Below, piece by piece: positions 44,998 to 64,000 of a stretch of DNA of 64,000 nucleotides. The stretch lies in the NCBI RefSeq assembly GCF_003790525.1, contig NZ_CP033635.1; one strand, written 5' to 3'. Both the position numbers and the translations under genes were made by a program. The notes beneath the pieces are model-generated. The model ran no database searches. It worked only from the letters and a program-made list of their open reading frames with translations, and was not told the origin of the DNA. The stretch is from Escherichia coli (GTDB taxonomy: Bacteria > Pseudomonadota > Gammaproteobacteria > Enterobacterales > Enterobacteriaceae). Position 1 is the first letter of the stretch; the number at the start of each line of letters is the position of its first letter.

Positions 44998-45006
44998 CTT
45001 ACGTCC

Positions 45007-45957
45007 TTAGGTTTTAATAATATGGGTGCCCGTTTCGCCGCGTAGCGCCGCAGGCAGGCATTCCGGCGTGGTGATAATCACTTCTTTACCGCCCTGCTCC
45101 AGGAACGTCAGGCTGGCGATGATTTTTGGCAACATGCTGCCGGGTGGGAAATGCCCTTCCTGCATATAGCGGGTCATGGTGGCAATATCCACCCGATCCA
45201 GCACCTGCTGCTGCGGTTTGCCAAAGTGAATACACACTTTTTCCACGCCAGTGGTGATCACCAGAATGTCGGCGTGAATTTCACGGGCCAATAGCGCGGT
45301 AGAGAGATCTTTGTCGATAACCGCGTCCACGCTTTGGTAATCCCCCGCTTCAGTACGCACTACCGGAATTCCACCGCCGCCCGCGCCAATCACCACAAAA
45401 CCTTGTTGGATCAGCGCCTTAATGGCAGGTGCTTCGACAATACGTTTCGGTTCCGGCGAGGCGACCACGCGGCGATAGCCCCGTCCGGCATCTTCAACAA
45501 AACGCCAGTCAGGGTTTGCCTTTTGTAGTTCGTCACGCTGGCTTTCACTAAAGAATGCGCCGATGGGCTTGGTGGGATGGGCAAACCCCGGATCGTTTTT
45601 ATCCACTTCCACCTGAGTCACCACGGTGACGGCTTTTTTCTCGCCGTGACGCGCCAGCCGGTTATTCAGCGCCTGCTGGATCAGATAGCCAATGCCGCCT
45701 TGCGTATCCGCCACACAGTTCGCCAGCGGCGTTAAGGGCAGCCCTTCGCGCTCGTGGGCAATCTCCGCGCGGCGTAAATCTAAACCGACCTGCGGTCCGT
45801 TGCCGTGGGTCAGCACAATGTCGTAATCGGAAGCCAGCATTTCCAGCACCGTATCGGCGACGGCCTTCACCGCCTCCGCCTGATGCTCAATCGACTGGCT
45901 GGCGTTATCTTTGATAATGCTGTTGCCACCAATGGCAACGACCACAAGTTCTTTCAT
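45007..45957 (-). CDS. yahI: carbamate kinase-like protein
   Basis: ORF 45007-46131 trimmed to MKELVVVAIGGNSI start (316 aa), amino-acid-kinase fold N-terminus. Confidence 0.85.
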   Translation of the reverse strand: MKELVVVAIGGNSIIKDNASQSIEHQAEAVKAVADTVLEMLASDYDIVLTHGNGPQVGLDLRRAEIAHEREGLPLTPLANCVADTQGGIGYLIQQALNNRLARHGEKKAVTVVTQVEVDKNDPGFAHPTKPIGAFFSESQRDELQKANPDWRFVEDAGRGYRRVVASPEPKRIVEAPAIKALIQQGFVVIGAGGGGIPVVRTEAGDYQSVDAVIDKDLSTALLAREIHADILVITTGVEKVCIHFGKPQQQVLDRVDIATMTRYMQEGHFPPGSMLPKIIASLTFLEQGGKEVIITTPECLPAALRGETGTHIIKT

Positions 45958-46051
45958 GTTGTTATGTCCGCTACAGAGGGTGATGGGGTTATGAGAGTGA
46001 GGTTGCCCTTCTCCCCAAAAGGGAGAAGGTATCGTAAGGTGCGTTTGCAGG

Positions 46052-47470: not shown

Positions 47471-49017
47471 CAGGCTTCCTCCCCTTTGCAGATAAATTCA
47501 CGCGCCAGCAATCCGGTATTGGTGCTGCTGCTCGCCAGAATCACTCCGGCATCAAGCAGCATCTGGCTTTGTTGTTCTAATGATGGCGTATCAAGATCGG
47601 TACCCAGCACATAGGCGAGAATGATCAACTCACGTCCTTCGGCAGCGGCGATCGCTTTCGCCTCTTTGATCGCCTCGATGGTGGAACCGACCGGATCTTC
47701 ATGCGATCCAAACCCGAGCACAAAATCCATCACGATCAACGCCACTTCTGGATCGCGCGCCTCTTCGATCAAGCGGCTGATACGGTTGGTGGGGTCAATC
47801 ATTGGATGCGGCTTGCCGTTGGTAAAATCGTCATCGCCAAAGTCGAGGAAGGTATGTTTGACGCTGCGGTTGATATCTTTCAGGCGGAATTCAGGATCGG
47901 GCTGGATGTTGCTGTAGACATCGCCGTGTTTTTCCATCACCGCGAACATGGTTTCGTCACACAGCGTACCTCCGCAGAACAGGCCACGAATGTATTTCTG
48001 TTGCGGCTTCAGGCGAGCGCGCACGTCAGCAATCAATGGCTGGTTCAGGGTATGCAGATCGAGATGTTCCTGTTTCACGCCGGAGAGCATTACCGCTTTC
48101 AGCGCCGCCTCTTTGCTGCCGCGAGCAAACTGTAGCCCTTGCTCATCCACTGGCGTTTCGCCACGACCGAGGAAGCAGACCACCACCGGCTTGCGGCAGG
48201 CACGTGCGCGTTCCAGCACTTTGCGGGCCACCGCAGGCGCAGGCGGTTTGGAGATAAGCACAATGATTTCAGTTTGCGGATCGTTTTCCAGCATCCCGAT
48301 GGCGTCGAACATCATCAGGCCGCCGATTTTCTCGCTCAGGTCGCGCCCACCGGTGCCAATCAGTTGCGAAACGCCGCCGCCAAATTCATGGATACGGACG
48401 CTCAGTTCCTGGCTACCGGTGCCGGATGCGCCAACAATACCGATGTTGCCGCGACGCACGGCGTTACCAAAGCAGAGCGCCGCGCCGTTGATAATCGCCG
48501 TGCCGCAGTCTGGCCCCATCAGCAGCAGCCCTTTTTCATGGGCCAACTGTTTGAGCGCCAGTTCATCTTCAACCGAGACGTTATCGGAAAACAGCATCAC
48601 GTTAAGATCATTTTGCAGCGCCTGACGCGCTTCGCGAGCGGCAAACAGACCGTTGACCGAAATCACTGCCAGGTTACTTTCCGGGATATGCTTTTTGGCG
48701 CTGGCAATAGTGGCGTAACGCGCCTCGTGCGAGCCGCTTTGCGCTTTGGTGTTGAACAGTTCTTCAATCTCCACCAGCAACTGCTCGTTGTCTGCGCCCG
48801 CTTTGCCGTTGATGACAATCATCAGGTCGCCGTTTTTCGCCTGCTCCAGCTCCGGCGTCAGCAGCCCTAAATTCTTCAGCACGCCTTTGTTCATTTCGGT
48901 CGCCATCGCCACAAATGCCTGCTCGACGCCGTCGAGTTTATTTGCACGTGTGGAGATAGACATCAGCGAGACAGAATCAAAATAGGTATTCGGTTTAATG
49001 ACTATTTTAACTGACAT
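47470..49017 (-). CDS. yahF: FdrA-like protein with succinyl-CoA-synthetase-alpha-like CoA-binding domains
   Basis: 515 aa MSVKIVIKPNTYFDSVSLMSIS; glycine-rich IGIVGASGTGSQE segment. Confidence 0.8.
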   Translation of the reverse strand: MSVKIVIKPNTYFDSVSLMSISTRANKLDGVEQAFVAMATEMNKGVLKNLGLLTPELEQAKNGDLMIVINGKAGADNEQLLVEIEELFNTKAQSGSHEARYATIASAKKHIPESNLAVISVNGLFAAREARQALQNDLNVMLFSDNVSVEDELALKQLAHEKGLLLMGPDCGTAIINGAALCFGNAVRRGNIGIVGASGTGSQELSVRIHEFGGGVSQLIGTGGRDLSEKIGGLMMFDAIGMLENDPQTEIIVLISKPPAPAVARKVLERARACRKPVVVCFLGRGETPVDEQGLQFARGSKEAALKAVMLSGVKQEHLDLHTLNQPLIADVRARLKPQQKYIRGLFCGGTLCDETMFAVMEKHGDVYSNIQPDPEFRLKDINRSVKHTFLDFGDDDFTNGKPHPMIDPTNRISRLIEEARDPEVALIVMDFVLGFGSHEDPVGSTIEAIKEAKAIAAAEGRELIILAYVLGTDLDTPSLEQQSQMLLDAGVILASSSTNTGLLAREFICKGEEA

Positions 49018-49870
49018 AATTCCCTCCGTAGGTTTGGCTCAGCGCACAACCATCGGCCATGCCATACAGCATGTCGCAGCCGGAACTGGAGCCAATATGT
49101 TTAATTTTTTCTATTGCCTGAGTTGCGTTCCCAGGGATGTCATAAATAATGTTATGAATAAAACGATGAATATTTTCCCGGCAGCGTTGTTGTAATGCGG
49201 CTTCCAGCGTTATGGCACTTAATAACGTGGTATTATTTCTGCCGCGTTGCAGACCGAGATAAAATTCCTCTTTGTATTTTTCCGCCGGATGTCCGGAAAT
49301 AAATAAAACAAGCGCCAGACCTGTTAAATAATCGTCGGCTGATGGCGTAAGGCCAATCCCTAAGCCCATCATACTGGCGACTGCTGAGGCGATATTTTGT
49401 TTATCGTTTACGGCCTGAATAACTGCCCGTCGTTTAATATGTAATTCTTTATTTAACGCCTGATAAAACGGACTATCGCCGCGATAATTAAACAGGGTTT
49501 CATTTTCCCCCAGGTGCTGATGAATTATGTCGTGCCACTGTTGCCAGGCGATAAAGTGAAAATTCACAGCGGTCATTTGCAAGGTTGGGGACAGCCAAAG
49601 CCGACAACGACTCATCTCTATATGAAGATGTTGACCAACCGTAATGCCTTGATCGTCAAACTGAACCTTATCACCATGCCGGAACAGACCATCAAAGTGA
49701 GTGAGTGCCAACCGACAACTGTTTGGCGCATTGTCGTACTCTTCACAAAGCAGCGTTAGCAACTGCTGGCGAGCCGGGAGTGCGATATTTACCGCTCTGG
49801 CAAAGAGCTGTTCAACCTGTCCTTGCCCCCGCTGCGCCAGAAAATCCGCATCCGCAGTTAGCGCCCACAC
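49007..49870 (-). CDS. yahE: DUF2877-family protein (YlbF paralogue)
   Basis: 287-aa ORF overlapping yahF start by 11 nt. Confidence 0.75.
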   Translation of the reverse strand: MWALTADADFLAQRGQGQVEQLFARAVNIALPARQQLLTLLCEEYDNAPNSCRLALTHFDGLFRHGDKVQFDDQGITVGQHLHIEMSRCRLWLSPTLQMTAVNFHFIAWQQWHDIIHQHLGENETLFNYRGDSPFYQALNKELHIKRRAVIQAVNDKQNIASAVASMMGLGIGLTPSADDYLTGLALVLFISGHPAEKYKEEFYLGLQRGRNNTTLLSAITLEAALQQRCRENIHRFIHNIIYDIPGNATQAIEKIKHIGSSSGCDMLYGMADGCALSQTYGGNYVS

Positions 49871-49909
49871 ACACCGTCTTTCTGGTGTGTTGATAGCAAG
49901 CCTCCCGGT

Positions 49910-50515
49910 TTATGCGCCTGCGGCAATCAGTAACTGCGCAATCTCTTCAAAGCCTCGTTCCCGCGCCAGTTCCAGCGGCGTTTTGCCATATTTATCCGTC
50001 ATGTGCGGGCTGGCACCGTGTTCCAGCAATAACTGGACAATCGCCTGCTGTTTAATCCCGCCATCATTAAGCACAATTGCTTCCAGTAGCGGCGTCCAGC
50101 CAACATGGTTGGTCTGGTTAACGTTAATCTCCGTATGCGCCAAAAGCTCTTTTACAATACTTAAATGGCCTTTTTCACAGGCAGGCGTCAGGCCGACACC
50201 GCCAAAACGGGTTACGCAATTAAGATCGGGTTTAGCCGGTAAAATAATCCGTAACAGGGTTAAATCGCCGGTCAGGCAGCTAATTAAAAAAGGATTTGAA
50301 CATATCTGATCTTGCTTATTAATATCCGCTCCGGCGTCAATTAATGCCTGAACGCAAGCATATTGCTGATATAAACTTGCCAGCGTAATTGCCGTTTTCC
50401 CCTGACGATCGCAGGTATTAATATCGACACCCAGCGCAAGGCAGGTTTTTACTTTATCGATATCACCCTGTTGCGCAGCCAATAAATAGTCGGCAGGTAG
50501 ATTTTTTATAGTCAT
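49910..50515 (-). CDS. yahD: ankyrin-repeat protein
   Basis: 201 aa; repeated ankyrin-like units GxTPLxxAxxxGHxxxVxxLLxxGA (e.g. GKTAITLASLYQQYACVQALIDAGADIN). Confidence 0.8.
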   Translation of the reverse strand: MTIKNLPADYLLAAQQGDIDKVKTCLALGVDINTCDRQGKTAITLASLYQQYACVQALIDAGADINKQDQICSNPFLISCLTGDLTLLRIILPAKPDLNCVTRFGGVGLTPACEKGHLSIVKELLAHTEINVNQTNHVGWTPLLEAIVLNDGGIKQQAIVQLLLEHGASPHMTDKYGKTPLELARERGFEEIAQLLIAAGA

Positions 50516-50772
50516 TCACATTCCCCTGGTTTTTGTGGCTGTTTTCGATGAATTGAGAATAGCAACGATAATCTGATAAAAGAACCCGCTTAAATTTAAT
50601 TCGCCGTATTTCGCCTTTTTGTTGAATGATGTTCAACAATCTTTTCGCAGTGTGCGGTAATGCAATATTTGTTTCTTTGACCCGATACCCTTTCACTCAA
50701 TCAGGTTTTATTTCTCTATAGTCTGCACATGTAAGAGTAGCTTTCGTCCATGTCTAACCAGAGGGGAACAAG

Positions 50773-51270
50773 ATGAACGGACTCACGGCAACGGGTGTCA
50801 CCGTCGGTATTTGTGCAGGGCTTTGGCAGTTAGTGTCTTCACATGTCGGGCTCTCTCAGGGATGGGAATTATTAGGAACCATTGGCTTCGTCGCCTTTTG
50901 CAGTTTTTATGCCGCAGGCGGCGGTAAATCGGGGTTTATCAGAAGCCTGGCGGTTAATTATTCCGGGATGGTGTGGGCGTTTTTCGCCGCGCTGGCTGCC
51001 GGTTGGCTGGCCTCGGTGAGTGGATTGTCCACGTTCTGGGCGAGCGTGATTATGACTGTACCCTTCTCGGCGGTGGTGGTCTGGCAAGGACGTTTCGGTT
51101 TATTGTCTTTTATTCCCGGAGGCTTTCTCGGCATGACGCTATTTTTTGCCAGCGGGATGAACTGGACGGTGACGTTACTGGGTTTTCTGGCGGGTAACTG
51201 CGTGGGGATAATTTCAGAATATGGCGGACAAAAATTAAGCGAAGCGACGACTAAACGCGACGGGTATTAA
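50773..51270 (+). CDS. yahC: small inner-membrane protein
   Basis: 165 aa, four hydrophobic segments. Confidence 0.7.
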   Translation: MNGLTATGVTVGICAGLWQLVSSHVGLSQGWELLGTIGFVAFCSFYAAGGGKSGFIRSLAVNYSGMVWAFFAALAAGWLASVSGLSTFWASVIMTVPFSAVVVWQGRFGLLSFIPGGFLGMTLFFASGMNWTVTLLGFLAGNCVGIISEYGGQKLSEATTKRDGY

Positions 51271-51361
51271 AAGTTATTCAAAAATGATTATCTATCTTTA
51301 ACCGATACCTCTACAGTCATGGCTGGAGAAATTCATATTCGATAATGGCGGGAATGGTTTA

Positions 51362-52294
51362 ATGAACTCAATTTTTACCGAAGAGAATCTGTTGGCATTT
51401 ACTACCGCTGCGCGTTTTGGCAGTTTCAGTAAAGCAGCAGAAGAGTTGGGTTTAACCACTTCCGCCATTAGCTACACCATCAAGCGAATGGAAACAGGGC
51501 TGGATGTGGTGCTGTTCACTCGCAGTACCCGAAGCATTGAGTTAACGGAGTCCGGGCGTTATTTTTTCCGCAAAGCTACCGACCTGCTGAATGATTTTCA
51601 CGCCATCAAACGCAGCATCGATACTATTTCGCAGGGTATAGAAGCACGGGTGCGCATTTGTATTAACCAACTGCTTTATACGCCCAAACACACCGCACGC
51701 TTATTACAGGTACTGAAAAAGCAGTTTCCAACCTGCCAGATTACCGTGACGACCGAAGTGTATAACGGCGTCTGGGATGCGATTATTAATAATCAGGCGA
51801 ATATTGCTATCGGCGCGCCCGACACACTGCTGGACGGCGGCGGCATTGATTACACGGAGATTGGCGCGATTCGCTGGGCTTTTGCTATCGCCCCGGATCA
51901 CCCGTTAGCCTTTGTGCCGGAACCCATCGCCGAAAGCCAGCTGCGTCTCTATCCTAATATCATGGTGGAAGACACCGCGCATACGATTAATAAAAAAGTG
52001 GGCTGGTTGCTGCATGGGCAGGAGTCGATTCTGGTGCCAGATTTCAACACCAAATGTCAGTGCCAGATTTTAGGTGAAGGAATTGGTTTTTTGCCGGATT
52101 ACATGGTCCGTGAGGCGATGGCGCAATCCCTGCTGGTTACCCGACAAATCCATAATCCGCGCCAGGATTCACGCATGTTACTCGCAACTCAGCATTCTGC
52201 TACGGGTCAGGTGACGCAGTGGATTAAAAAGCAATTTGCGCCAAATGGCATATTAACGGGGATCTATCAGGATTTACTGCATCGGGAGAATTAA
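51362..52294 (+). CDS. yahB: LysR-family transcriptional regulator
   Basis: 310 aa; N-terminal HTH LLAFTTAARFGSFSKAAEELGLTTSAISYTIKRME. Confidence 0.85.
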   Translation: MNSIFTEENLLAFTTAARFGSFSKAAEELGLTTSAISYTIKRMETGLDVVLFTRSTRSIELTESGRYFFRKATDLLNDFHAIKRSIDTISQGIEARVRICINQLLYTPKHTARLLQVLKKQFPTCQITVTTEVYNGVWDAIINNQANIAIGAPDTLLDGGGIDYTEIGAIRWAFAIAPDHPLAFVPEPIAESQLRLYPNIMVEDTAHTINKKVGWLLHGQESILVPDFNTKCQCQILGEGIGFLPDYMVREAMAQSLLVTRQIHNPRQDSRMLLATQHSATGQVTQWIKKQFAPNGILTGIYQDLLHREN

Positions 52295-52335
52295 TCGCTG
52301 CCAACCTCCCGATGCGCTGTGAATAGCGGTTTACA

Positions 52336-53424
52336 TCAACCACCTGCTTTCATTACCCATTCAGAGATAAATTTATTACCCGGTACTGGCGGAGAGTACA
52401 AATAGCCCTGCAAAAAGTGAACTCCTTTGCCGATCATTAAATCCGCCTGCTCCTGGGTTTCTACCCCTTCCGCCACGATACTCAGACCAGGCTTACGCGC
52501 CAGTTCGACAATATTGTCCACAATATGACCGGATATTTCGTCCACGCTCGCCATTTGCACAAATGACTTATCGATCTTAATAAAATCGACCGGGAACGCC
52601 TGCAAGTAACGATAGGTCGCATAACCCGTACCAAAGTCATCCAGCGCAAAGGTAATGTTGTGCTGATGAAGGCTGTCAAATATCGCTCTGGCTTCTGGCG
52701 TTACCGGAATAGGGTTACGTTCCGTCAGCTCAAGAACCAGTTTGATTTTATCGTTACCTAATTTCTTAACCAGGTTCAGACACTCTTTTTCAAATCCTGC
52801 GGCCAAAAAACAACCCGCCGAGACGTTGATGCCAATATGGAAATTGTCCGGCAGCAAATGTTTTACCGGCATCAGAATATCCGCAGTCTGTTTCATCAAC
52901 TGGCGAGTCATTATGACGATAAGACCAGATGACTCCGCCAGAGGAATAAACTGATCCGGTGGGATAATTCCCGTTTGTGGATGTTCCCAGCGGACAAGCA
53001 CCTCACAGCCCGTCAGTACCCCAGTCTGCGCGCAGAAAACCGGTTGGATCCACGGTTTAAATTCATGGTTTTCCAACGCCAGACTGATGGCTTCAGGCGT
53101 GACGATATGGTGATAGTGATTATCATTAATATATTTGTGACTATTATTACCCGTGGCGGATATGATCTCCGGATTGTACTGAAAGAAAATATCCCGCCAG
53201 AAAGTAATATCGCTCTGAATCCCCAGTTTCTCAAAGAGCTGTTTCTTTTGATGTGAAATGGTCTTTGCACTGCGATTTCTGTACTGTGATATTTCTGTTA
53301 CAGACATTCCCTGCATCAGCAGCTTGAGTAGCAGTCGTTCTTTCTCGGATACGCTACCAGGCAATGACAAATGAACCGTTGTACCGAACTCTTGCAGAAA
53401 AACACGAAAATCACATGAATTCAT
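52336..53424 (-). CDS. pdeL: c-di-GMP phosphodiesterase with LuxR-type HTH and EAL domain
   Basis: ORF 52336-53430; LuxR HTH LSEKERLLLKLLMQGMSVTEISQYRNRSAKTISHQKK; EAL-domain motifs ELTE and DDFGTG. Confidence 0.85.
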   Translation of the reverse strand: MNSCDFRVFLQEFGTTVHLSLPGSVSEKERLLLKLLMQGMSVTEISQYRNRSAKTISHQKKQLFEKLGIQSDITFWRDIFFQYNPEIISATGNNSHKYINDNHYHHIVTPEAISLALENHEFKPWIQPVFCAQTGVLTGCEVLVRWEHPQTGIIPPDQFIPLAESSGLIVIMTRQLMKQTADILMPVKHLLPDNFHIGINVSAGCFLAAGFEKECLNLVKKLGNDKIKLVLELTERNPIPVTPEARAIFDSLHQHNITFALDDFGTGYATYRYLQAFPVDFIKIDKSFVQMASVDEISGHIVDNIVELARKPGLSIVAEGVETQEQADLMIGKGVHFLQGYLYSPPVPGNKFISEWVMKAGG

Positions 53425-54299
53425 GAACACACCTTTTATCTTTTATCGCTGTTCAGTATGAGTGATTACCTGTGGATTCCTGAGCACACATAAGGGGTAA
53501 CCATAAACATTAGCGATGCCATACGTATAACATCCCACATCACTATCAAGAAGATTATCTTTACCTCTGATGCTCGCTCAAAAACAGTTACGCTAAATAC
53601 CTTAAAAAGGTAATCACAAGTCAAACTCAGGAGATAATCACGCAAGAATGCAATATTAAAATTCAGATACTCATTTTTGGTAATAAAGAAGTAGTTGGAC
53701 TATTTCGATATTTATAATTTCCCACTACGTATTGACGCCCATTCATGAGTAAAGGCGCATTATATGAATTTAACAATCCAGATCAACTGAAAATACCTCA
53801 ACCTCATAAACACATAGCGTCAACATTCAATGACATAATGAGTAAAGATGTTGGTTATGCATACACGTCATTACTCTATGCCTATCCCTTAACAACCTGC
53901 TTTTTAAGACTGAATCCATTCAGCAATAGATAGCCAACATTATAACAATGACAATAAAAACAATATTTAAAACAATCAATAAAATATCAGACACAGACAA
54001 TTAAACCTTAAACAACAAACGGTTACATTGATTTTAGTTGATTTGCGCTACGCGTTCCCCATGAATAAAGCGTCATTTCAAATTAGCACCAATATTTACA
54101 TTAAATAAGACTAAGCTTATTGAACATTCACAACAGTCCAAACGTAGGTTTTGGGCTTCAATAGTTCTTTTCTTTTTTATTATCTGTTGCCTGGCAATCA
54201 TCAATCGATACTAAGGGCTTAACTGTACAGATATAACGTATCAAGAGGTAAGAGAAACCGCGCCATATGCAGACATGGCGCGGTTTTATGCAAAAACAA

Positions 54300-56333
54300 T
54301 CACGCGTCCGGGAACATCACGCTATGGCCCGGCGCTTCACGATGGAGATGGATAAAGTTAAGATGCCGCTCGTACTGGTCAAGAATATCGGTGATCACCT
54401 GCTCTTTGCTGTAGTCCATCAGGTCGTTGCCCTGGCTGCCTTCTAACAGGAAGGTTTCCAGCCGGTAGTAGGTCGATTTACCGCTACGTGCGCGGTAGGT
54501 AAAGCCCGGCACCGAATATTGCTGCGGCCAAATCTGATAGACAAAGTTTTGCTCTTCGCCCATATGCACCAACAAATCCAGATGCCCCAACTGTTGTCCC
54601 TCTTCCGGCGGCAGGCTTTTTAGCTCCACGTACGCGCCGCGCAACCGCAACTCCTGCGCCACTTCTTCCATTGCCGGGTAACAGACCGTCTCCATCATCT
54701 GTTTAGTGTAACGCGTGCCCGGATAATTCATCAGGCGCGAGAGACGTTTTTTCCAGCTCAGGCGATCCTGAAGCCCCAGCGGTCGCGGTGCGGTATCGCG
54801 GTTGGCACTTTCACGGCGGTAATCTTCTACCTTCAGAGATTTATACAACCCCGCCATCACGAAGAAGATCACAAAGCTGAACGGCAGGCCCATAATCACC
54901 GTGGTGTTTTGCAGCGCGGATATCCCGTTGGTCATCAGCATGCCGAGCGTCAGCAGGCCAATCGCCACCGACCAGAAGACGCGCAGCCAGCCGGGGGCGT
55001 CGCTGTTGATATCTTTAAGCTGCGAGGTGAAATTCCCCAGCACCAGCGCCCCGGAGTCCGCCGAGGTCACATAAAACAGCAGGCCAGTAATGGTGGCGAC
55101 GGAGGCGCTAAAGGTAAACGCCGGATACTGCGCCAGCAGGCTGTAGAAGCCGCGCTCCGGATGGACCATCGCTTCCTCGGCAAATGCCGCGCCGCCGTGG
55201 ATGATTTCATACAGCGCGCTATTGCCGAACACCGAGAGCCATAACAGCGTGAAGGTAAACGGAATAATCAACGTGCCCAGCACGAACTGGCGAATGGTAC
55301 GCCCACGCGAGATACGCGCCAGGAACAAGCCAACAAACGGCGACCATGCCACCCACCATGCCCAGAAGAAGAGCGTCCAGTTATTCATCCACTCAACCGG
55401 ACGGTCGAAGGCAAAACTGTTGAGCGTCATGCCCATAAAGCGATTCATATAGTCGCCAACGTTCAGCACCAGCGCATTAAGCAGGAACGAGGTGTCGCCC
55501 ATAAACAGCACGAAAAGGATCAATCCCAGCGCCAGCGCAACGTTAAGTTCCGATAACACACGAATCCCCTTATCGACACCGGAGGTGACAGAGATCGTGG
55601 CGATGATCACCGACAAGGCGATCAGTGCCGCTTTCGCCGCCATTGAATCGGGAATATCAAACAGTACGCTCAAGCCATAGTTAAGCTGCACCACACCGAT
55701 ACCGAGCGTAGTGGCAATACCGAAGATGGTGCCGATCACCGCTGCAATATCCACTGAGTGACCTATCGGCCCGTTAATCCGTTTACCGAAGATCGGGTAC
55801 AGCGCCGAGCGGATGGTGAGCGGCAAATTATAACGATAACTAAAGTATCCGAGCGCCATGCCCATCAGCGCATACATCGACCAGCCGGTTAAGCCGTAGT
55901 GAAACAGCGTCCAGACCATCGCCTGACGCGCGGCCTCAATCGTCTGACCCGCGCCTTCCGGCGGCTGCATATACTGCGTTACCGGTTCGGCTACGGAGAA
56001 GAACATCAGGTCGATACCGATCCCGGCAGCAAACAGCATCGCCGCCCAACTCAGCAGACTGAATTCCGGTTTTGATTGTTCTGGCCCGAGCTTCACCGAA
56101 CCAAAACGCGAACAAGCGATGCAGACCACAAAGACAATATAGAGCGTTGCCGCCAGCAGATAGTACCAACCGAAGGTTTTAGAGACCCAGTCCAGCGTGC
56201 GTCCAATCCACAGGGCCGAGAAGTCGCGAAACAGGATCGTTGTCAGGGAAAACAACAAAATCAGTCCGGCGGAAGTGTAAAACACCACCGGATTGATTTT
56301 GTCCTTTTCCCTGCTGTGTGAAAGGTCTGTCAT
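54300..56333 (-). CDS. betT: choline transporter (BCCT family)
   Basis: 677 aa, 12-TM core plus cytoplasmic C-terminal extension. Confidence 0.92.
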   Translation of the reverse strand: MTDLSHSREKDKINPVVFYTSAGLILLFSLTTILFRDFSALWIGRTLDWVSKTFGWYYLLAATLYIVFVVCIACSRFGSVKLGPEQSKPEFSLLSWAAMLFAAGIGIDLMFFSVAEPVTQYMQPPEGAGQTIEAARQAMVWTLFHYGLTGWSMYALMGMALGYFSYRYNLPLTIRSALYPIFGKRINGPIGHSVDIAAVIGTIFGIATTLGIGVVQLNYGLSVLFDIPDSMAAKAALIALSVIIATISVTSGVDKGIRVLSELNVALALGLILFVLFMGDTSFLLNALVLNVGDYMNRFMGMTLNSFAFDRPVEWMNNWTLFFWAWWVAWSPFVGLFLARISRGRTIRQFVLGTLIIPFTFTLLWLSVFGNSALYEIIHGGAAFAEEAMVHPERGFYSLLAQYPAFTFSASVATITGLLFYVTSADSGALVLGNFTSQLKDINSDAPGWLRVFWSVAIGLLTLGMLMTNGISALQNTTVIMGLPFSFVIFFVMAGLYKSLKVEDYRRESANRDTAPRPLGLQDRLSWKKRLSRLMNYPGTRYTKQMMETVCYPAMEEVAQELRLRGAYVELKSLPPEEGQQLGHLDLLVHMGEEQNFVYQIWPQQYSVPGFTYRARSGKSTYYRLETFLLEGSQGNDLMDYSKEQVITDILDQYERHLNFIHLHREAPGHSVMFPDA

Positions 56334-56397
56334 CCAGTATCCCCACTGTTATTGTTACCATTTAAAATCAAATTCGTAACAATTAAGACACATTTTA

Positions 56398-56417
56398 TAT
56401 TGAACGTCCAATCAATA
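56398..56417. promoter_or_regulatory. candidate BetI operator in divergent betT/betI promoter region
   Basis: TATTGA-acgtccaa-TCAATA inverted repeat. Confidence 0.4.
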
Positions 56418-56461
56418 ACCGCTTTAATAGATAAACAACGCTGATGAATGGAGTGGCGAAA

Positions 56462-57049
56462 ATGCCCAAATTGGGGATGCAGTCGATCCGGCGCAGACAA
56501 CTGATCGACGCCACGCTGGAAGCAATAAATGAAGTGGGCATGCACGATGCAACGATCGCGCAGATCGCCCGCCGTGCAGGCGTTTCTACGGGGATCATCA
56601 GCCACTATTTCAGGGACAAAAATGGTCTGCTGGAAGCAACCATGCGCGATATCACCAGTCAGCTGCGTGACGCGGTTTTGAATCGATTACATGCACTTCC
56701 GCAGGGCAGTGCAGAGCAGCGATTACAGGCGATTGTTGGCGGAAACTTCGACGAAACGCAGGTGAGCAGTGCGGCGATGAAAGCCTGGCTGGCGTTCTGG
56801 GCCAGCAGTATGCATCAGCCGATGCTCTATCGCTTGCAGCAGGTCAGTAGCCGCCGCTTATTGTCGAATCTGGTGAGCGAATTTCACCGCGAGTTACCGC
56901 GCCAACAGGCGCAGGAAGCGGGCTACGGACTTGCCGCGCTGATTGACGGATTATGGCTGCGCGCGGCACTGAGCGGCAAACCGCTGGATAAACCTCTCGC
57001 ACACTCGCTGACCCGTCACTTTATTACTCAGCATTTACCCACCGATTAA
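56462..57049 (+). CDS. betI: TetR-family repressor of bet genes
   Basis: ORF trimmed to [50 protein letters not shown] (195 aa). Confidence 0.9.
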
Positions 57050-57062
57050 CCGAGGAGACGTG

Positions 57063-58535
57063 ATGTCCCGAATGGCAGAACAGCAGCTTTATATACATGG
57101 TGGTTATACATCCGCCACCAGCGGTCGCACCTTCGAGACCATTAACCCGGCCAACGGTAACGTGCTGGCGACCGTGCAGGCCGCCGGGCGCGAGGATGTC
57201 GATCGCGCCGTGAAGAGTGCCCAACAGGGGCAAAAAATCTGGGCGGCGATGACCGCTATGGAACGCTCGCGTATTCTGCGTCGGGCCGTTGATATTCTAC
57301 GTGAACGCAATGACGAACTCGCAAAACTGGAAACCCTCGACACCGGAAAAGCATATTCGGAAACCTCAACCGTCGATATCGTTACCGGTGCGGACGTGCT
57401 GGAGTACTACGCCGGGCTGATCCCGGCGCTGGAAGGCAGCCAGATCCCGTTGCGTGAGACGTCATTTGTTTATACCCGCCGCGAACCGCTGGGCGTAGTG
57501 GCAGGGATTGGCGCATGGAACTACCCGATTCAGATTGCCCTGTGGAAATCCGCCCCAGCGCTGGCGGCAGGCAATGCAATGATTTTCAAACCGAGCGAAG
57601 TCACCCCGCTTACCGCGTTAAAGCTGGCCGAAATTTACAGCGAAGCGGGCCTGCCGGACGGCGTATTTAACGTGTTGCCGGGCGTGGGCGCGGAGACCGG
57701 GCAGTATCTGACCGAGCATCCGGGCATTGCCAAAGTGTCATTTACCGGCGGTGTCGCCAGCGGCAAAAAAGTGATGGCTAACTCGGCGGCTTCCTCCCTG
57801 AAAGAAGTGACCATGGAGCTGGGCGGTAAATCACCGCTGATCGTTTTTGACGATGCGGATCTCGATCTCGCCGCCGATATCGCCATGATGGCGAATTTCT
57901 TCAGCTCCGGTCAGGTGTGTACCAACGGCACCCGCGTCTTCGTTCCGGCGAAATGCAAAGCCGCATTTGAACAAAAGATTCTGGCGCGCGTTGAGCGCAT
58001 TCGCGCGGGCGACGTTTTCGATCCGCAAACTAACTTTGGCCCGCTGGTCAGCTTCCCGCATCGCGATAACGTGCTGCGTTACATCGCCAAAGGCAAAGAG
58101 GAAGGCGCGCGCGTACTGTGCGGCGGCGATGTACTGAAAGGCGATGGCTTCGATAACGGCGCATGGGTTGCACCGACCGTGTTCACCGATTGCCGCGACG
58201 AAATGACCATCGTGCGCGAAGAGATCTTCGGTCCGGTGATGTCGCTTCTCACTTATGAATCTGAGGACGAAGTGATTCGCCGCGCTAACGATACCGACTA
58301 CGGTCTGGCGGCGGGTATCGTGACGGCGGACCTGAACCTCGCGCATCGCGTCATTCATCAGCTGGAAGCGGGTATTTGCTGGATCAACACCTGGGGCGAA
58401 TCCCCGGCAGAGATGCCCGTTGGCGGCTACAAACACTCCGGCATTGGTCGCGAGAACGGCGTGATGACGCTCCAGAGTTACACCCAGGTGAAGTCCATCC
58501 AGGTTGAGATGGCTAAATTCCAGTCCATATTCTAA
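57063..58535 (+). CDS. betB: betaine-aldehyde dehydrogenase
   Basis: 490 aa; aldehyde dehydrogenase motifs ELGGKSP and [13 protein letters not shown]. Confidence 0.92.
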
Positions 58536-58548
58536 CCAGGAGGTTTAT

Positions 58549-60237
58549 TTGCAATTTGACTACATCATTATTGGTGCCGGCTCAGCCGGCAACGTCCTCG
58601 CTACCCGTCTGACTGAAGATCCGAACACAACCGTGCTGCTGCTTGAAGCAGGCGGCCCGGACTATCGCTTTGACTTCCGCACCCAGATGCCCGCCGCGCT
58701 GGCGTTCCCGCTACAGGGCAAACGCTACAACTGGGCCTATGAGACGGAACCCGAACCGTTTATGAACAACCGCCGCATGGAGTGCGGACGCGGCAAAGGT
58801 CTGGGCGGTTCATCGCTGATCAACGGCATGTGTTACATCCGTGGTAACGCGCTGGATCTCGATAACTGGGCGCAAGAACCCGGTCTGGAGAACTGGAGCT
58901 ACCTCGACTGTCTGCCCTACTACCGCAAGGCCGAGACTCGCGACGTGGGCGAGAACGACTACCACGGCGGCGACGGCCCGGTGAGCGTCACCACCTCCAA
59001 ACCCGGCGTCAATCCGCTGTTTGAAGCGATGATTGAAGCGGGCGTGCAGGCGGGCTACCCGCGCACGGACGATCTCAACGGCTATCAGCAAGAAGGTTTT
59101 GGCCCGATGGATCGCACCGTCACGCCGCATGGCCGTCGCGCCAGCACCGCGCGTGGCTATCTCGATCAGGCCAAATCGCGCTCTAACCTGACCATTCGTA
59201 CTCACGCCATGACCGATCACATCATTTTTGACGGCAAACGCGCGGTGGGCGTCGAGTGGCTGGAAGGCGACAGCACCATTCCGACCCGCGCGGCGGCGAA
59301 TAAAGAAGTGCTGTTATGTGCAGGCGCGATTGCTTCACCGCAGATCCTGCAACGCTCCGGCGTCGGCAACGCTGGACTGCTGGCGGAGTTTGATATTCCG
59401 CTGGTGCATGAATTACCTGGCGTCGGCGAAAATCTTCAGGATCACCTGGAGATGTATCTGCAATATGAGTGCAAAGAACCGGTTTCCCTCTACCCTGCCC
59501 TGCAGTGGTGGAATCAGCCGAAAATCGGTGCGGAGTGGCTGTTTGGCGGCACCGGCATTGGTGCCAGCAACCACTTTGAAGCAGGCGGATTTATTCGCAG
59601 CCGTGAGGAATTTGCGTGGCCGAATATTCAGTACCATTTCCTGCCAGTGGCGATTAACTATAACGGCTCGAACGCAGTGAAAGAGCACGGCTTCCAGTGC
59701 CACGTCGGATCGATGCGCTCGCCAAGCCGTGGGCATGTGCGGATTAAATCCCGCGCCCCGCACCAGCATCCAGCGATTCTGTTTAACTACATGTCGCACG
59801 AGCAGGACTGGCAGGAGTTCCGCGACGCAATTCGCATCACCCGGGAGATCATGCATCAACCGGCGCTGGATCAGTATCGTGGCCGCGAAATCAGCCCCGG
59901 TGTCGAATGCCAGACGGATGAGCAGCTCGATGAGTTTGTGCGTAATCACGCCGAAACCGCCTTCCACCCATGCGGTACGTGCAAAATGGGGTACGACGAG
60001 ATGTCCGTTGTGGATGGCGAAGGCCGCGTGCACGGGCTGGAAGGATTACGCGTAGTCGATGCGTCAATTATGCCGCAGATTATCACCGGCAATCTGAACG
60101 CCACGACGATTATGATTGGCGAGAAAATGGCGGATATGATTCGCGGGAAGGATGCGTTGCCGAGGAGCACGGCGGGATATTATGTGGCAAATGGGATGCC
60201 GGTGAGAGCGAAAAAAATGAGTCGTGATGTGAACTGA
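58549..60237 (+). CDS. betA: choline dehydrogenase (GMC oxidoreductase)
   Basis: Apparent TTG start giving (M)[20 protein letters not shown]; FAD-binding GxGxxG; GGAGG Shine-Dalgarno 7 nt upstream; C-terminal residues may differ from K-12. Confidence 0.85.
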
Positions 60238-60768
60238 CTCAGGAACCTATCAGATTGAGAGTTACCGTTCTACTATGAGGACCGAATCCTTATATAAAAC
60301 ACTGAGGTAACTCTCATGCTTCATATCCAGTATTCATGATGCTGGCTTTTTGCTGATATTTAACCCGAACATTCCTGATACAGACTATTAATTCATTTAT
60401 CTGCGGCAGATTTTATTTTCTGGATATATTATGAGTGAACAAATCAAACAGGATATCGATCTGATTGAGATTTTATTTTATCTGAAGAAAAAGGTAGATG
60501 AATACCAACAAAACTCTGGGCAGTAATAAACAGCATTCTGATAGAGAGTGCCTGTATAAAGCTGAAGTGACAATGACCGGGAAGGGAACCCGTTTTCAGG
60601 AATGGATGCCTGTCTTTTTCAATTTAAATATCCTGGCATTAGTAATGCCAGGATATTTACAGAAGAGCAGCATAACCATGACGGAACGGGGTTAAGTCAG
60701 GTTGTCCTAAACGCTATTTTCAACCTCGTATGCCTTCTTCAGGTTTATGTCCAGACTTCATATCTCTC

Positions 60769-61464
60769 TCAACAATCCTCAATAATCAGATACACCGCTT
60801 TCACCGGGCCATGAACTCCGACGACTTTGATAAGCTCAATATCCGCCGTTGAACTGGGGCCGCTAATGATGTTAATGCAGGAAGGCATTCGTTCACCGGC
60901 CTGCGCTTTCTGATGCAATTTTTCTGCGAGTTGCGCTACACGCGGCAGGATAGTGCTTTTACGCAGGATAAAAAGAGAAGATTCCGGGAGCAGGCTCAAT
61001 GAACGCCCGCGCCCGGCGGCGGAAAAAAGAACCACGCCTCCCGATTCGGTTAAACCATATTCAGCATATACGACGCCCACTTTAGCCTGCTCTGCTTGTG
61101 ATATGTTCTCAATACCTTTCGCCGGATCCCAAACAACGGCATTGCATTCCTGCTGCAAACGTTCGCTAATCCCCAATTCCTCCAGCCTCGTGTCACCGCT
61201 AATCACGATCGACTGATCTCCCAGCTCTTTACACAGACGTATTGCAGCTTCTGCGGCCTGCGCCTCGCTGGTCAGTTCACAGCGCGTCAACATAACATCG
61301 CTGGCAAACTGGATAAACGCGTCACAGCGCTGCTGTTGGTTAAGTTCGGTAAGCCGCTCGTTAGCATAGTTGTTAAGCGGCGCATCTTCTGCTTGCGGTT
61401 CAAGTCGCTGCGGGCGACCCAGTGCCTGAGCAACGTTATTCAAAAATTCGCTCCGATTATCCAT
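60769..61464 (-). CDS. ykgG: LutC-like (DUF162) protein
   Basis: ORF 60769-61611 trimmed to MDNRSEFLNNVAQALG (231 aa); 8-nt overlap with ykgF. Confidence 0.8.
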   Translation of the reverse strand: MDNRSEFLNNVAQALGRPQRLEPQAEDAPLNNYANERLTELNQQQRCDAFIQFASDVMLTRCELTSEAQAAEAAIRLCKELGDQSIVISGDTRLEELGISERLQQECNAVVWDPAKGIENISQAEQAKVGVVYAEYGLTESGGVVLFSAAGRGRSLSLLPESSLFILRKSTILPRVAQLAEKLHQKAQAGERMPSCINIISGPSSTADIELIKVVGVHGPVKAVYLIIEDC

Positions 61465-62884
61465 TCTTTTTCTCCTGCGCCTGATGTTTCTTAAACCAAC
61501 TACGGAAACTCTCTCCGTCAGCTTCAGGAAGATCGCGTGCTTCCATCCAGTCGCTAATCGCGCCAAATTTGAGTGGTGTTTTGCCGCCATTGATAAACCA
61601 GCTTGCCGCATGAGCGCCGGCCATCATCCCGACTTTCCACAATCCTGGATGACTATTGGCATAAGCGAACATTTTTATCGCCCGTTGCTCTGCTTTTGCG
61701 GTGATCCCTTTTTCAGCCATCACCCGACGATGACGCAAAATCAGTTTTGACAGCGGAATACGCACCGGACACACGCTGTCACAAGCGGTGCATAAAGAGC
61801 AGGCGTAGGGTAAATCTTTAAAATCTTTATAGCCGCCAAGTAGCGGAGAAATCACCGCACCAATTGGCCCTGGATAAATAGAGCCATATCCATGACCGCC
61901 AATATGGCGATATGCCGGACAAGTATTCATACAAGCCCCGCAGCGAATACAGCGCAGCACATCCCGAAATTCAGAGGCCAGCACCTCAGAACGCCCGTTA
62001 TCGACAATAACCAGATGAAACTCTTCAGGACCATCAACGTGCCCCGCTTCGCGCGGTCCTGTCAGCCAGGTGTTGTATCCCGTCAAACGTGCACCAACGG
62101 CACTGCGCGCCAGCATGGTGATCAATACATCTACCTCGGCAAACGTGGGGGCAATACGCTCCATTCCCATCACTGCAATATGCGTTTTAGGCAGCGTGGT
62201 ACACATTCGCGCATTACCTTCATTGGTCACCAGGCATACCGAACCGGTCTCTGCCACCGCGAAATTACAGCCGGTAATACCTATTTCAGCACTGAGGAAA
62301 TCTTCGCGGATTTTTTGCCGGATGAATAAGGTCATTGCTTCAGGCGTTTCCGACCCCTCATAGCCCAGACGTTCGTGTAGCACCCGACGGATCTGATGGC
62401 GATCTTTATGAATTGCCGGGACCACAACATGAGAGGGCGGATCTTGATCCAGCTGGAGAATGTATTCACCCAGATCGGTTTCAATCACCTGAATGCCAGC
62501 ATCCTGCAACACATGATTGACACCAATCTCTTCGGTCACCATCGATTTAGATTTCACCACCTTCCGGGCATTTTTGCGTTGGGCAACCTGTAAAATGTAG
62601 CGGGTAGCGTCTTCTTTGGTTTTTGCAAAATAGACGTGACCGCCGTTTTGCGTCACTTTTTCTGAGAGCTGGTACAGATAAGCGTCGAGATTACTCAGAA
62701 CATGATCACGTATCTGGGCGGCCCGATCGCGCCACTCCTCCCAGTGCCCCAATTCATCGACCATTTTTTGCCGATTTGCCCCGATACGCTGCTGCGCGTT
62801 TGCCACCGCTTTGCGCATGATCGGATCTTCAATTTGCTGACGGATGCGTGTCTTAAAATCTGTATTACTGGTTTTGATCGACAT
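61457..62884 (-). CDS. ykgF: LutB-like iron-sulfur protein
   Basis: 475 aa; two 4Fe-4S ferredoxin motifs CIRCGACMNTCP and CSLCTACDSVCP. Confidence 0.85.
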   Translation of the reverse strand: MSIKTSNTDFKTRIRQQIEDPIMRKAVANAQQRIGANRQKMVDELGHWEEWRDRAAQIRDHVLSNLDAYLYQLSEKVTQNGGHVYFAKTKEDATRYILQVAQRKNARKVVKSKSMVTEEIGVNHVLQDAGIQVIETDLGEYILQLDQDPPSHVVVPAIHKDRHQIRRVLHERLGYEGSETPEAMTLFIRQKIREDFLSAEIGITGCNFAVAETGSVCLVTNEGNARMCTTLPKTHIAVMGMERIAPTFAEVDVLITMLARSAVGARLTGYNTWLTGPREAGHVDGPEEFHLVIVDNGRSEVLASEFRDVLRCIRCGACMNTCPAYRHIGGHGYGSIYPGPIGAVISPLLGGYKDFKDLPYACSLCTACDSVCPVRIPLSKLILRHRRVMAEKGITAKAEQRAIKMFAYANSHPGLWKVGMMAGAHAASWFINGGKTPLKFGAISDWMEARDLPEADGESFRSWFKKHQAQEKKNG

Positions 62885-62894
62885 CTTTATATCC

Positions 62895-63614
62895 TCAGCG
62901 GCTCATCAACACTTCAGCAATATGCATCACTTTGACTTTCTGCCCTTCCCGTTGTAATCGCCCACTGATGTTCAGCAGGCAACTCACGTCAGCACCTATT
63001 AAATACTCAGGGCGGACTTCCATCAGGTGCGCAACCTTTTCTTGCACCATCTCGCCGGATATTTCGGCCATTTTAACCGAGAACGTGCCGCCAAATCCGC
63101 AGCAGGTATCCTGTTCAGCAAAGGTCAACAGCTCCAGTCCACGCACATTTTTCAGCAGCGTAAGTGGTTCGTCCTTCACCCCCAGCTTACGGGCCAGGCT
63201 ACAAGATGGGTGATACACCGCTCTCCCTTGCAAACTGGCACCTACATCGACTACCCCTAATGTATTAACAATAAAAGAGGTGAGATCCTGCATACGCGCG
63301 GCAACCTTTTCGGCACGTGATGCCCATTCAGGTTCATCCGCCAGATACGTCGGGTAACTTTTTACGGCATAGGTGCAAGAGCCAGCCGGTGAAATAATGG
63401 GATCGTCGTTATCCTCCAGTGCGGCGATCAGATTTTTCATCCCTGGAATCGCTTCTTTGATATAACCACTATTGATCGCAGGCTGACCGCAGCATCCCTG
63501 TTTCTCCGGGAAATTTACGCGACAGCCGAGTTTTTCCAGTAGCAGCACGGAGTCTCGTGCCATTCTTGATTTCAGGGCGTCACCAATACAGGTGACAAAG
63601 AAATTGACATTCAC
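62895..63614 (-). CDS. ykgE: LutA-like Fe-S oxidoreductase (cysteine-rich CCG domains)
   Basis: 239 aa; CCGQP and CCGFGG motifs. Confidence 0.85.
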   Translation of the reverse strand: MNVNFFVTCIGDALKSRMARDSVLLLEKLGCRVNFPEKQGCCGQPAINSGYIKEAIPGMKNLIAALEDNDDPIISPAGSCTYAVKSYPTYLADEPEWASRAEKVAARMQDLTSFIVNTLGVVDVGASLQGRAVYHPSCSLARKLGVKDEPLTLLKNVRGLELLTFAEQDTCCGFGGTFSVKMAEISGEMVQEKVAHLMEVRPEYLIGADVSCLLNISGRLQREGQKVKVMHIAEVLMSR

Positions 63615-64000
63615 AACTAATACTCCATTACTTCATACCCATTTATGCCCGATGGTTCCCCCCTTCCGGGGGATCAATCATCAATAAATATGGCGTTCTT
63701 TTTTAATTGGCTAGCAACATACCACCCCTCATTTGTATGACAAATGATAATCTTTCATCTAAACTTCAAATGCAATAACTAATTTTATTTCTTTCGGCAT
63801 CGCTCACATTTTATAGGGAAATCGACGATCATTTTTGGCATAAGAAATCCATTTAAAAAGGCTACATCCCTTATACCTATTCAGAGCTACTTATTCAGGG
63901 GTTATTGAGATATACACTGATGGTGTACAAAAAAATCACCGACAATAATCACGTATCAAGTAATAGTCGGGATTTTAGTTAATTGAAGCAATTTAGTTTG

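Follow-up and report, generated by a model that had tools for sequence, protein, structure and literature searches.

A lineage-specific in-frame deletion within ykgH and a conserved palindrome, probably a 3'-end RNA hairpin, in the betA–ykgG spacer of Escherichia coli

In the 64,000-nucleotide stretch of Escherichia coli DNA analyzed here (the window), the stop codon of betA (60235-60237) and the stop codon of ykgG on the minus strand (60769-60771) are separated by only 531 bp, and the locus raises the question of what has become of the gene expected between them and what the repeats in the spacer are. A preliminary description, made from the sequence alone, had noted that the gap holds no ORF of gene size, had expected a membrane-protein gene of about 220 codons (ykgH) between ykgG and betA as in K-12, and had drawn attention to an 11-bp inverted repeat, a short ORF and a long palindrome, which together might mark a deletion scar or a decayed gene, accompanied by a terminator or a palindrome that binds protein. 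We conclude that the spacer is very probably the usual E. coli betA-ykgH-ykgG region from which a single deletion, specific to one lineage, has removed part of ykgH; the palindrome is probably a conserved 3'-end RNA hairpin. The features discussed below are listed in Table 1.

Table 1. Features of the betA–ykgG spacer and its flanking genes, in window coordinates
Feature	Position	Strand	Basis
betA (choline dehydrogenase), left flank	58549..60237	+	ORF list; RefSeq betA of 1689 nt in identical strains; K-12 alignment
11-bp perfect inverted repeat, enclosing 39 nt with a smaller inner hairpin (putative betA 3' UTR stem-loop)	60256..60316	+	repeat finder, fold, shuffles
Empty insertion site of the ~6-kb fimX(ipbA)-hyxR-hyxA-hyxB island	60323..60325		comparison with ST131 and O157:H7
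Terminator-like hairpin CCAGTATTCATGATGCTGG followed by CTTTTTG	60327..60352	+	consensus scan (match 60327-60345), fold
ykgH remnant, 31-codon ORF	60431..60526	+	ORF list, alignment, translation
Deletion junction (..GAAGAAAAA-G-GTAGATG..), ambiguous by one shared G	60492..60494	+	alignment
ykgH 3' UTR, kept intact	60527..60624	+	matches the RIL-seq "ykgH 3' UTR" candidate
35-bp perfect palindrome, 17-nt arms and 1-nt centre	60625..60659		repeat finder, fold, shuffles
ykgG (lutC-like), right flank, convergent with ykgH	60769..61464	-

The deletion in ykgH and its distribution

Both statements about the gap itself were correct: in the ORF list the largest ORFs of the spacer are of 31-70 codons and none is longer than 70, and the K-12 gene expected there is indeed ykgH, of 669 bp and 222 codons. 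The alignment against the K-12 interval that had been proposed as a check was run, and the lengths differ (1,123 bp between betA and ykgG in K-12 versus 531 bp in the window), K-12 having the additional gene. In a four-way multiple alignment there is a single 573-bp gap inside ykgH, the flanks of which are about 96% identical to K-12, and the rest of the spacer is collinear with K-12 from end to end. The deletion is in frame and covers codons 22-212 (191 codons) of ykgH; the window reads ...CTGAAGAAAAA-G-GTAGATGAATACC... across the junction, where K-12 has 573 more bases. The short ORF is present where it had been placed, at 60431-60526, and encodes MSEQIKQDIDLIEILFYLKKKVDEYQQNSGQ, which is YkgH residues 1-21 joined in frame to residues 213-222. 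Compared with K-12 ykgH (b0310), the first 63 nt are kept with one difference and the last 33 nt with none, and the promoter region, the 3' UTR and the position between betA and ykgG are equivalent, whereas the product is reduced to 31 amino acids without a membrane segment, codons 22-212 being absent. With this syntenic position, and with the 5' end of ykgH recognizable by homology on one side of the gap and its 3' end on the other, the remnant has the properties of a ykgH pseudogene, and the suspicion of a deletion scar or degraded gene has thus been borne out. In SMS-3-5, e1-39 and 2014C-3075 the NCBI annotation pipeline (PGAP) records an incomplete pseudogene over ykgH codons 1-22; the deletion is ordinary lineage-specific gene decay, already flagged by the reference annotation.

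A longer ORF of 65 codons (60498-60695) was considered as a gene and rejected, as it overlaps the 3' end of ykgH in another frame, crosses the palindrome and has no family match. It is annotated in SMS-3-5 (PGAP, WP_012311773.1) and is open in all lineages, with 10 of its 65 residues differing between ST131 and the window at a regional DNA difference of about 7%.

The spacer with 100 bp on each side was used as a 731-bp megablast query, and 5,239 of 5,426 complete E. coli genomes proved to have the region; most of these, like K-12, match the query in two parts that span about 1,305 bp and are separated by an annotated ykgH. The exact junction, taken as a full-length match to a 70-bp query centred on it, occurs in 172 of the 5,426 genomes (3%), among them SMS-3-5, while at least 80% of K-12 ykgH is kept in 4,892. 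When the 20 kb from 44000 to 64000 were searched, many genomes were listed at 100.0% identity, again including SMS-3-5, which we take to be a phylogroup F, ST354 strain. Very close relatives of the window carry another in-frame ykgH deletion, of 168 bp (M25631H and NRZ96052a; a 501-bp allele in IR53017), which we read as independent of the 573-bp one. Elsewhere ykgH has an internal stop codon (O157:H7), an IS1 insertion (MB50) or a deletion of about 118 bp as judged by its span, a length that is no multiple of three (LT599825).

How the deletion arose is suggested by its ends. Each breakpoint, as located in undeleted K-12 and M25631H, falls within one copy of an imperfect A-rich direct repeat (GAAGAAAAAG and CAAAAAAATG, identical at 7 of 10 positions), and the segment between the copies may have been lost by replication slippage or illegitimate recombination; the exact microhomology at the junction is only 1 nt, and slippage is no more than plausible. 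Such an event would have left the ykgH upstream region, the start codon, the 31-codon in-frame stub and the complete 3' UTR in place. An adjacent deletion mediated by IS1 is extremely unlikely. It would be suggested by strain e1-39, which has the window allele together with a complete 768-bp IS1 98 bp downstream of the junction, and by the attraction of insertion sequences to this region (IS1 in ykgH of MB50, IS2 at the hairpin of ETEC1747), but the e1-39 element at that distance is flanked by its own 8-bp target duplication, CGTTTTCA (window 60591-60598), and was therefore a later simple insertion into an already deleted allele, the surrounding e1-39 sequence matching the window at 100% identity along the 731-bp query. 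The window junction carries no IS sequence or scar, and among related genomes none was seen with an IS end abutting one of the deletion breakpoints. It is also very improbable, though less so than an IS1 origin, that the 31-codon ORF is a functional small-protein gene or that the deletion was selected rather than neutral. Function or selection would be favoured by the in-frame nature of the deletion, by the survival of the upstream region, start codon and 3' UTR of ykgH, and by an independent 168-bp in-frame deletion in close relatives; on the other side, an in-frame outcome has a one-in-three chance, and the stop codon, IS1 and ~118-bp out-of-frame alleles found elsewhere form a pattern that resembles neutral decay. 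Only 3% of the genomes have the allele, and its peptide, for which no family match was found, is made up of just the two cytoplasmic tails of a membrane protein.

A further idea, that ykgH decays because it has been orphaned from hyxB, was weakened by the counts, hyxB being found in 1,902 genomes and ykgH at least 80% complete in 4,892.

The protein lost by the deletion

YkgH (b0310) is an uncharacterized predicted inner-membrane protein without a curated family. In a word-seeded search it is essentially confined to Escherichia; an exhaustive HMMER search gave a handful of full-length relatives with 21-31% identity. The alignment of these relatives displays an N-terminal (E/D)IDLxEL motif before the first transmembrane segment (TM1), two cysteines, a W-Y pair and a C-terminal transmembrane segment. 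Among ten family members, six match Pfam Wzz and five match GNVR, YkgH itself scoring below the Pfam gathering thresholds, and the YkgH profile searched against PDB matched a chain-length determinant protein (E = 0.002). A single-sequence AlphaFold2 prediction was uninformative outside the transmembrane helices (pLDDT 50.6) and was replaced by an alignment-based model (pLDDT 83), in which residues 22-42 and 188-220 form transmembrane helices. At E below 0.01, Foldseek matched this model to Wzc, KpsE and WzzE chains, plus one chain of an AlbEF homologue. Because of the Pfam Wzz/GNVR matches, the PDB profile match, the predicted model and the Foldseek matches, YkgH looks like a miniature two-helix membrane protein of the polysaccharide-co-polymerase kind, by sequence and predicted fold. 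It shares with the polysaccharide co-polymerases (Wzz, WzzE, FepE, Wzc, KpsE) the (E/D)IDLxEL motif followed by TM1, a GNVR-like C-terminal transmembrane segment and a predicted fold with Wzc, KpsE and WzzE as its top PDB matches; however, it is far smaller (its periplasmic domain has about 140 amino acids), and its neighbours are autotransporter genes and not polysaccharide loci.

The window stub keeps none of these features: both transmembrane helices of the AlphaFold2 model and the periplasmic domain fall within the deleted codons 22-212. Since the stub has neither helix, the function of YkgH has presumably been lost in the window lineage. The existence of full-length distant homologues is hard to reconcile with the short allele as the ancestral state.

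Two sets of sequences retrieved in the course of these searches were set aside. A divergent-looking YkgH (P0015, 81% identity) comes from contigs L011 and L012, which show systematic G-to-A changes (GAGAG to AAAAG, GGGGG to AAAAA) and look like chemically converted reads rather than a diverged lineage. A scan of genome contigs with YkgH for outgroup loci gave only two tiny contigs, in Nocardioides and Amycolatopsis assemblies; where they match, their identity with E. coli ykgH is 100%, so that they are probably contaminants, and the scan yielded no outgroup hairpin for a covariation comparison.

The betA side of the spacer

The window betA ends differently from its K-12 counterpart: it has seven A at 60211-60217 where K-12 has six, so that the stop is shifted and the protein gains six residues (562 amino acids versus 556 in K-12). 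Just downstream, the 11-bp inverted repeat (TGAGAGTTACC at 60256-60266 and GGTAACTCTCA at 60306-60316, 39 nt apart) was reproduced by a repeat finder at exactly the coordinates first given for it. When the spacer was shuffled 1000 times with dinucleotides preserved, seven of the shuffled sequences had a perfect inverted repeat of 11 nt or more whose loop did not exceed 60 nt. The window, K-12, O157:H7 and ST131 share the same arms; the 39 nt between them vary in sequence but not in orientation. The predicted fold of the 123-nt region 3' of betA has an energy of -37 kcal/mol (z = -4.1) and includes both the 11-bp stem and an inner hairpin. We regard the repeat as a conserved putative stem-loop of the betA 3' UTR. 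The switches fimS and hyxS are about seven times longer than the 39-bp segment, and an invertible switch of the fimS/hyxS type was rejected, the segment having one orientation in the window, K-12, O157:H7 and ST131.

Next to the repeat lies the insertion point of an island. ST131 and O157:H7 hold the fimX-hyx island between ..GCTTCAT and ATATCCAG.., and it is absent from the window and K-12. Compared with the fimX(ipbA)/hyxS-hyxR-hyxA-hyxB island of ExPEC and O157:H7, the window thus has, like K-12, the exact unoccupied insertion point without the island. The literature describes the fimX/hyxS/hyxR switch, and a genomic region "ykgH..betA" is listed in ExPEC strains (PMC12928451). The right arm of the 11-bp repeat ends 6-8 bp before the insertion site, and a link between the repeat and island integration is possible but unsupported. 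That the repeat is a relic or a recognition structure of the island (an attachment or recombination site) is unlikely in our judgment: this closeness to the island junction and the tyrosine recombinase encoded by the island would fit such an origin, but strains that have the island and strains that lack it carry the full repeat in identical form, no copy of it is present at the other island end, and there is no sign of inversion, the 39-bp segment being in the same orientation in all lineages compared.

On the ykgH side of the insertion point is the only consensus intrinsic-terminator match after betA, a hairpin with a weak fold (-8 kcal/mol, z = -1.0). The K-12 Term-seq tables (PMC7815308) list no 3' end at 325450-325509, an interval that includes this terminator-like hairpin.

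The palindrome between the ykgH and ykgG stop codons

The palindrome had been described as a 33-bp element with perfect 16-bp arms at 60626-60658. The perfect palindrome is real, but its arms are 17 nt and not 16: the repeat finder places them at 60625-60641 and 60643-60659 around a single G. No inverted repeat of at least 16 nt arose in 1000 dinucleotide-preserving shuffles of the spacer, and no other perfect inverted repeat in the 64-kb window with a loop of at most 10 nt is as long, the next ones having 13 and 12 nt. The element lies 98 nt past the ykgH stop codon and 109 nt past the convergent ykgG stop codon. It is single-copy, and a 95-bp segment around it is present in 5,141 of the 5,426 genomes (~95%); the second "place" reported per genome is the opposite-strand match of the same locus. 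Families of the REP/BIME, ERIC or MITE-like kind have many copies per genome, and here there is one locus, with no other copy in the window.

The palindrome was found in K-12, O157:H7, ST131, O145 and the other lineages sampled, with arms mostly of 20 nt, and in every lineage sampled it follows an intact ykgH. It is an older, species-wide element and no product of the deletion; the suggestion that the palindrome and the 11-bp repeat are part of a deletion scar has to be dropped, both being found with intact ykgH and thus pre-dating the deletion. O157:H7 has a perfect 20+1+20 form (CTGTAAATATCCTGGCATTA-G-TAATGCCAGGATATTTACAG), of which the window has lost the three outer pairs by two substitutions (60622 and 60624). 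In K-12, two inner substitutions produce one mismatch and one wobble on either strand, and in B2 an arm has a C-to-T change by which pairing is preserved as G-U on the ykgH strand. Whereas the arms are conserved, lineages differ in the centre base (G, T or C). Double changes that compensate each other did not turn up within the species, whose divergence is too low for a covariation test. IS1 in e1-39 and IS2 in ETEC1747 interrupt the ykgH 3' UTR or the hairpin edge, so the 3' UTR/hairpin element is dispensable at least in these two strains.

The RNA fold predicted for the palindrome, at -26.5 kcal/mol for one strand and -24.6 kcal/mol for the other (z = -7.2 for both), is a G+C-rich stem of 16 pairs with a 3-nt loop downstream of the stop codons, as expected of a terminator stem. 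In the consensus intrinsic-terminator scan it fails, with no run of at least five T within 8 nt after the stem; the tail is CAGAAGAG after the full stem and AUAUUUAC (AUAUUUA) after the G+C-rich core. With no U-tract after the stem, the palindrome is not a canonical intrinsic terminator. Rfam matches over the spacer were all below the gathering thresholds (E of at least 0.6, bit scores of 11-20 against gathering scores of 38-160), those over the palindrome being microRNA precursor models and the others unrelated families.

Data from K-12 bear on how transcripts end here. A bicyclomycin experiment located a Rho-termination region at MG1655 coordinate 324578 on the ykgH strand (Adams et al. 2021, PMC7815308, supplementary file 2), which falls inside the K-12 hairpin (NC_000913.3 324563-324597). 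A stronger Rho-termination region was reported on the ykgG strand at 324913, which is 316 nt past the hairpin and antisense within ykgH (Adams et al. 2021, PMC7815308), and transcription in the ykgG direction thus passes the hairpin in K-12. The Term-seq tables of the same work (PMC7815308) contain no 3' end under ykgH or ykgG or at 324540-324599, perhaps because expression is too weak. The K-12 element resembles Rho-dependent termination with trimming to a stable hairpin in that its stem is strong, a U-tract is lacking and the Rho coordinate 324578 lies within it, a likeness that rests on K-12 data and so on a lineage other than that of the window. The concept of 3' ends being trimmed back to a stable hairpin was reportedly put forward by Dar and Sorek in 2018.

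We propose that the palindrome is probably a 3'-end stem-loop that delimits and stabilizes transcripts, chiefly the ykgH/3' UTR RNA, with termination being at least partly Rho-dependent. Where the convergent ykgH and ykgEFG units meet with their 3' ends, it would mark and protect transcript ends; transcripts would stop nearby, in K-12 at least partly through Rho, with subsequent trimming up to the hairpin. The same stem-loop would close the ykgH 3' UTR RNA that RIL-seq found associated with Hfq, and possibly also serve as a 3' end for ykgEFG on the minus strand. In our reading the palindrome is neither a protein operator nor a self-sufficient terminator. Of the two roles offered in the preliminary description, protein-binding palindrome or terminator, the latter fits better when taken as an RNA 3' end, given the convergent 3' ends, the folds and the K-12 Rho coordinate, and nothing supports a protein site.

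The most serious competitor is a bidirectional terminator of ykgH and ykgEFG, acting intrinsically or by RNA-polymerase collision; it overlaps with the preferred explanation and is a live rival, although we consider it rather unlikely. The genes are convergent, the symmetric G+C-rich core is flanked by AAATAT and ATATTT and so has a partly U-rich tail on each strand, and elements of this kind have been reported between convergent E. coli genes (bioRxiv 10.1101/2022.10.23.513370). Against this, transcription in the ykgG direction passes the hairpin in K-12 (the Rho signal at 324913), the ykgH-strand signal is Rho-sensitive while the published class is Rho-independent (bioRxiv 10.1101/2022.10.23.513370), and the U-tract of an intrinsic terminator is missing. 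A DNA-level operator for a dimeric transcription factor or another DNA-binding protein appears improbable, even though the perfect 17+1+17 dyad would suit one and the K-12 substitutions create a shifted TGGTAATACCA core near the lactate-utilization genes ykgEFG: the site is between convergent 3' ends, about 100 nt from each stop, with no promoter to control, and arms of 17-20 nt far exceed typical operator half-sites. The TGGTAATACCA core of the K-12 palindrome presumably resembles a half-site pair of the GntR/FadR type. A GntR-type operator was nevertheless rejected as a general explanation, the core being present in the K-12 allele only and not in the window, O157:H7, B2 or O145. Neither alternative displaces the 3'-end stem-loop as our preferred reading.

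The RNA that this stem-loop would close is itself a candidate. RIL-seq pointed to the ykgH 3' UTR as the source of a putative sRNA that associates with Hfq and has a target motif (Melamed et al. 2016, PMC5145812); it has a high sRNA score and accumulates RNA-seq reads (Bar et al. 2021, PMC8175672), and northern blots with two probes were negative in K-12 (PMC8175672). The published probes map to 60570-60599 and 60585-60608 of the window with 100% identity, directly upstream of the palindrome. Of the hallmarks of an Hfq-dependent sRNA, a terminator hairpin with a poly-U tail is not seen here, there being no U-run after the stem, nor did the two-probe northern blots show a discrete stable transcript (PMC8175672). 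Compared with the K-12 RIL-seq candidate, the window keeps the whole region past the ykgH stop, ending at the palindrome, and by position the candidate would lie about 100-230 nt from the ykgH start, versus about 670-800 nt in K-12. The deletion might then have made a compact transcript of about 230-260 nt (31-codon ORF, sRNA candidate and hairpin), a natural conversion of an mRNA into a small RNA, but we give this little credence. The deletion also takes out the K-12 Rho region at 324913. If the conversion had occurred, the dosage of the candidate sRNA could change in SMS-3-5-type strains, and antisense read-through from ykgEFG might now reach betA, the Rho region at 324913 being deleted.

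The main practical value of these findings is correct annotation: the 31-codon ORF is a remnant of ykgH and no new gene, and the 65-amino-acid "hypothetical protein" that PGAP places across the palindrome in some of the genomes with this allele is very likely spurious. The exact junction is a handy marker for the SMS-3-5-type lineage. A by-product of modest wider interest is that the uncharacterized K-12 YkgH appears to be a mini polysaccharide-co-polymerase-like protein that recurs beside autotransporter genes. The conserved palindrome of 35-41 bp would provide a concrete 3' boundary for the unconfirmed ykgH 3' UTR sRNA candidate, and with it a defined element to mutate.

Antisense termination at ykgH and the betA 3' end

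A strong Rho-termination region has been mapped at MG1655 324913 (+) (score 6.7, p = 2e-23), on the ykgG strand and antisense to ykgH (Adams et al. 2021, PMC7815308). This position corresponds to approximately codon 151 of ykgH and lies within the segment that is deleted in the window, and therefore ykgEFG read-through in the window's lineage may extend further toward betA. At the betA end itself, the A-run at window 60211-60217 contains seven A residues vs six in K-12, which causes a frameshift such that the stop codon is located 18 nt further downstream and six residues are gained (..AKKMSRDVN; 562 aa vs 556 aa). The long betA (1689 nt) is also found in O157:H7, and the short form (1671 nt) in ST131 and K-12.

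Insertions, repeats and a doubtful reading frame

The betA–ykgG interval is a repeated target of insertion sequences, as observed in e1-39, ETEC1747 and MB50 (see table). The ETEC1747 element, judged from its end sequence, is IS2. At the insertion point of the fimX-hyx island, no obvious target duplication was found in the window or in the ST131 (L007) and O157:H7 (L006) loci, just 2-3 ambiguous bases. After the palindrome, the two listed inverted repeats are the longest perfect short-loop ones in the window, and the 21-nt direct repeat is probably a chance occurrence in A+T-rich sequence.

Features of the window and of the compared loci
Feature	Location	Remark
IS1 (e1-39, L002)	window 60591-60598 (site)	ykgH 3' UTR
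IS3-family element (ETEC1747, L017)		3' edge of palindrome
IS1 (MB50, hit H141)		within ykgH
Inverted repeat	window 19697 (start)	perfect; 13-nt arms, 9-nt loop
Inverted repeat	window 54255 (start)	perfect; 12-nt arms, 8-nt loop
Direct repeat, 21 nt	window 60399-60419 and 60459-60479	ATCTGCGGCAGATTTTATTTT / ATCTGATTGAGATTTTATTTT; 81% identity; either side of ykgH start
Empty insertion point	window 60323-60325	for ~6-kb ipbA(fimX)-hyxR-hyxA-hyxB island
Same island, ST131	L007 3011-9001	intact
Same island, O157:H7	L006 4054-9001	degraded
Autotransporter context 1	L007 6636-9779	hyxB-ykgH in ST131
Autotransporter context 2	ENA contig	YkgH homologue (54% identity), interrupted by a stop codon; an autotransporter-like gene on each side
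Autotransporter context 3		P0058 (29% identity to YkgH), 1.4 kb downstream of 1608-aa autotransporter

PGAP calls a 65-aa hypothetical protein, WP_012311773.1, from the ORF at window 60498-60695 in SMS-3-5, with no call in 2014C-3075 or e1-39. This annotated gene is very likely spurious, since its ORF runs over the ykgH 3' end in a different frame, passes through the palindrome, differs at 10 of 65 residues between ST131 and the window, and gave no match when a protein family was sought for it.

YkgH relatives and their neighbours

The matched parts of a 256-bp Nocardioides malaquae Y6 contig (L008) and a 272-bp Amycolatopsis orientalis contig (L009) are both 100% identical to E. coli ykgH; these contigs are probably E. 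coli contamination of actinobacterial assemblies. Two Logan contigs spanning betA-ykgH (L011 and L012, from SRR27475577 and SRR27475578) carry systematic G-to-A changes and look like chemically converted or deaminated E. coli reads; the "81%-identical" YkgH cluster P0015 was derived from them and was rejected as false.

Autotransporter genes adjoin YkgH-family genes in three independent contexts, found in the compared loci L007, L010 and L019. Considered alongside the polysaccharide-co-polymerase-like fold, this repeated adjacency suggests a possible functional connection.
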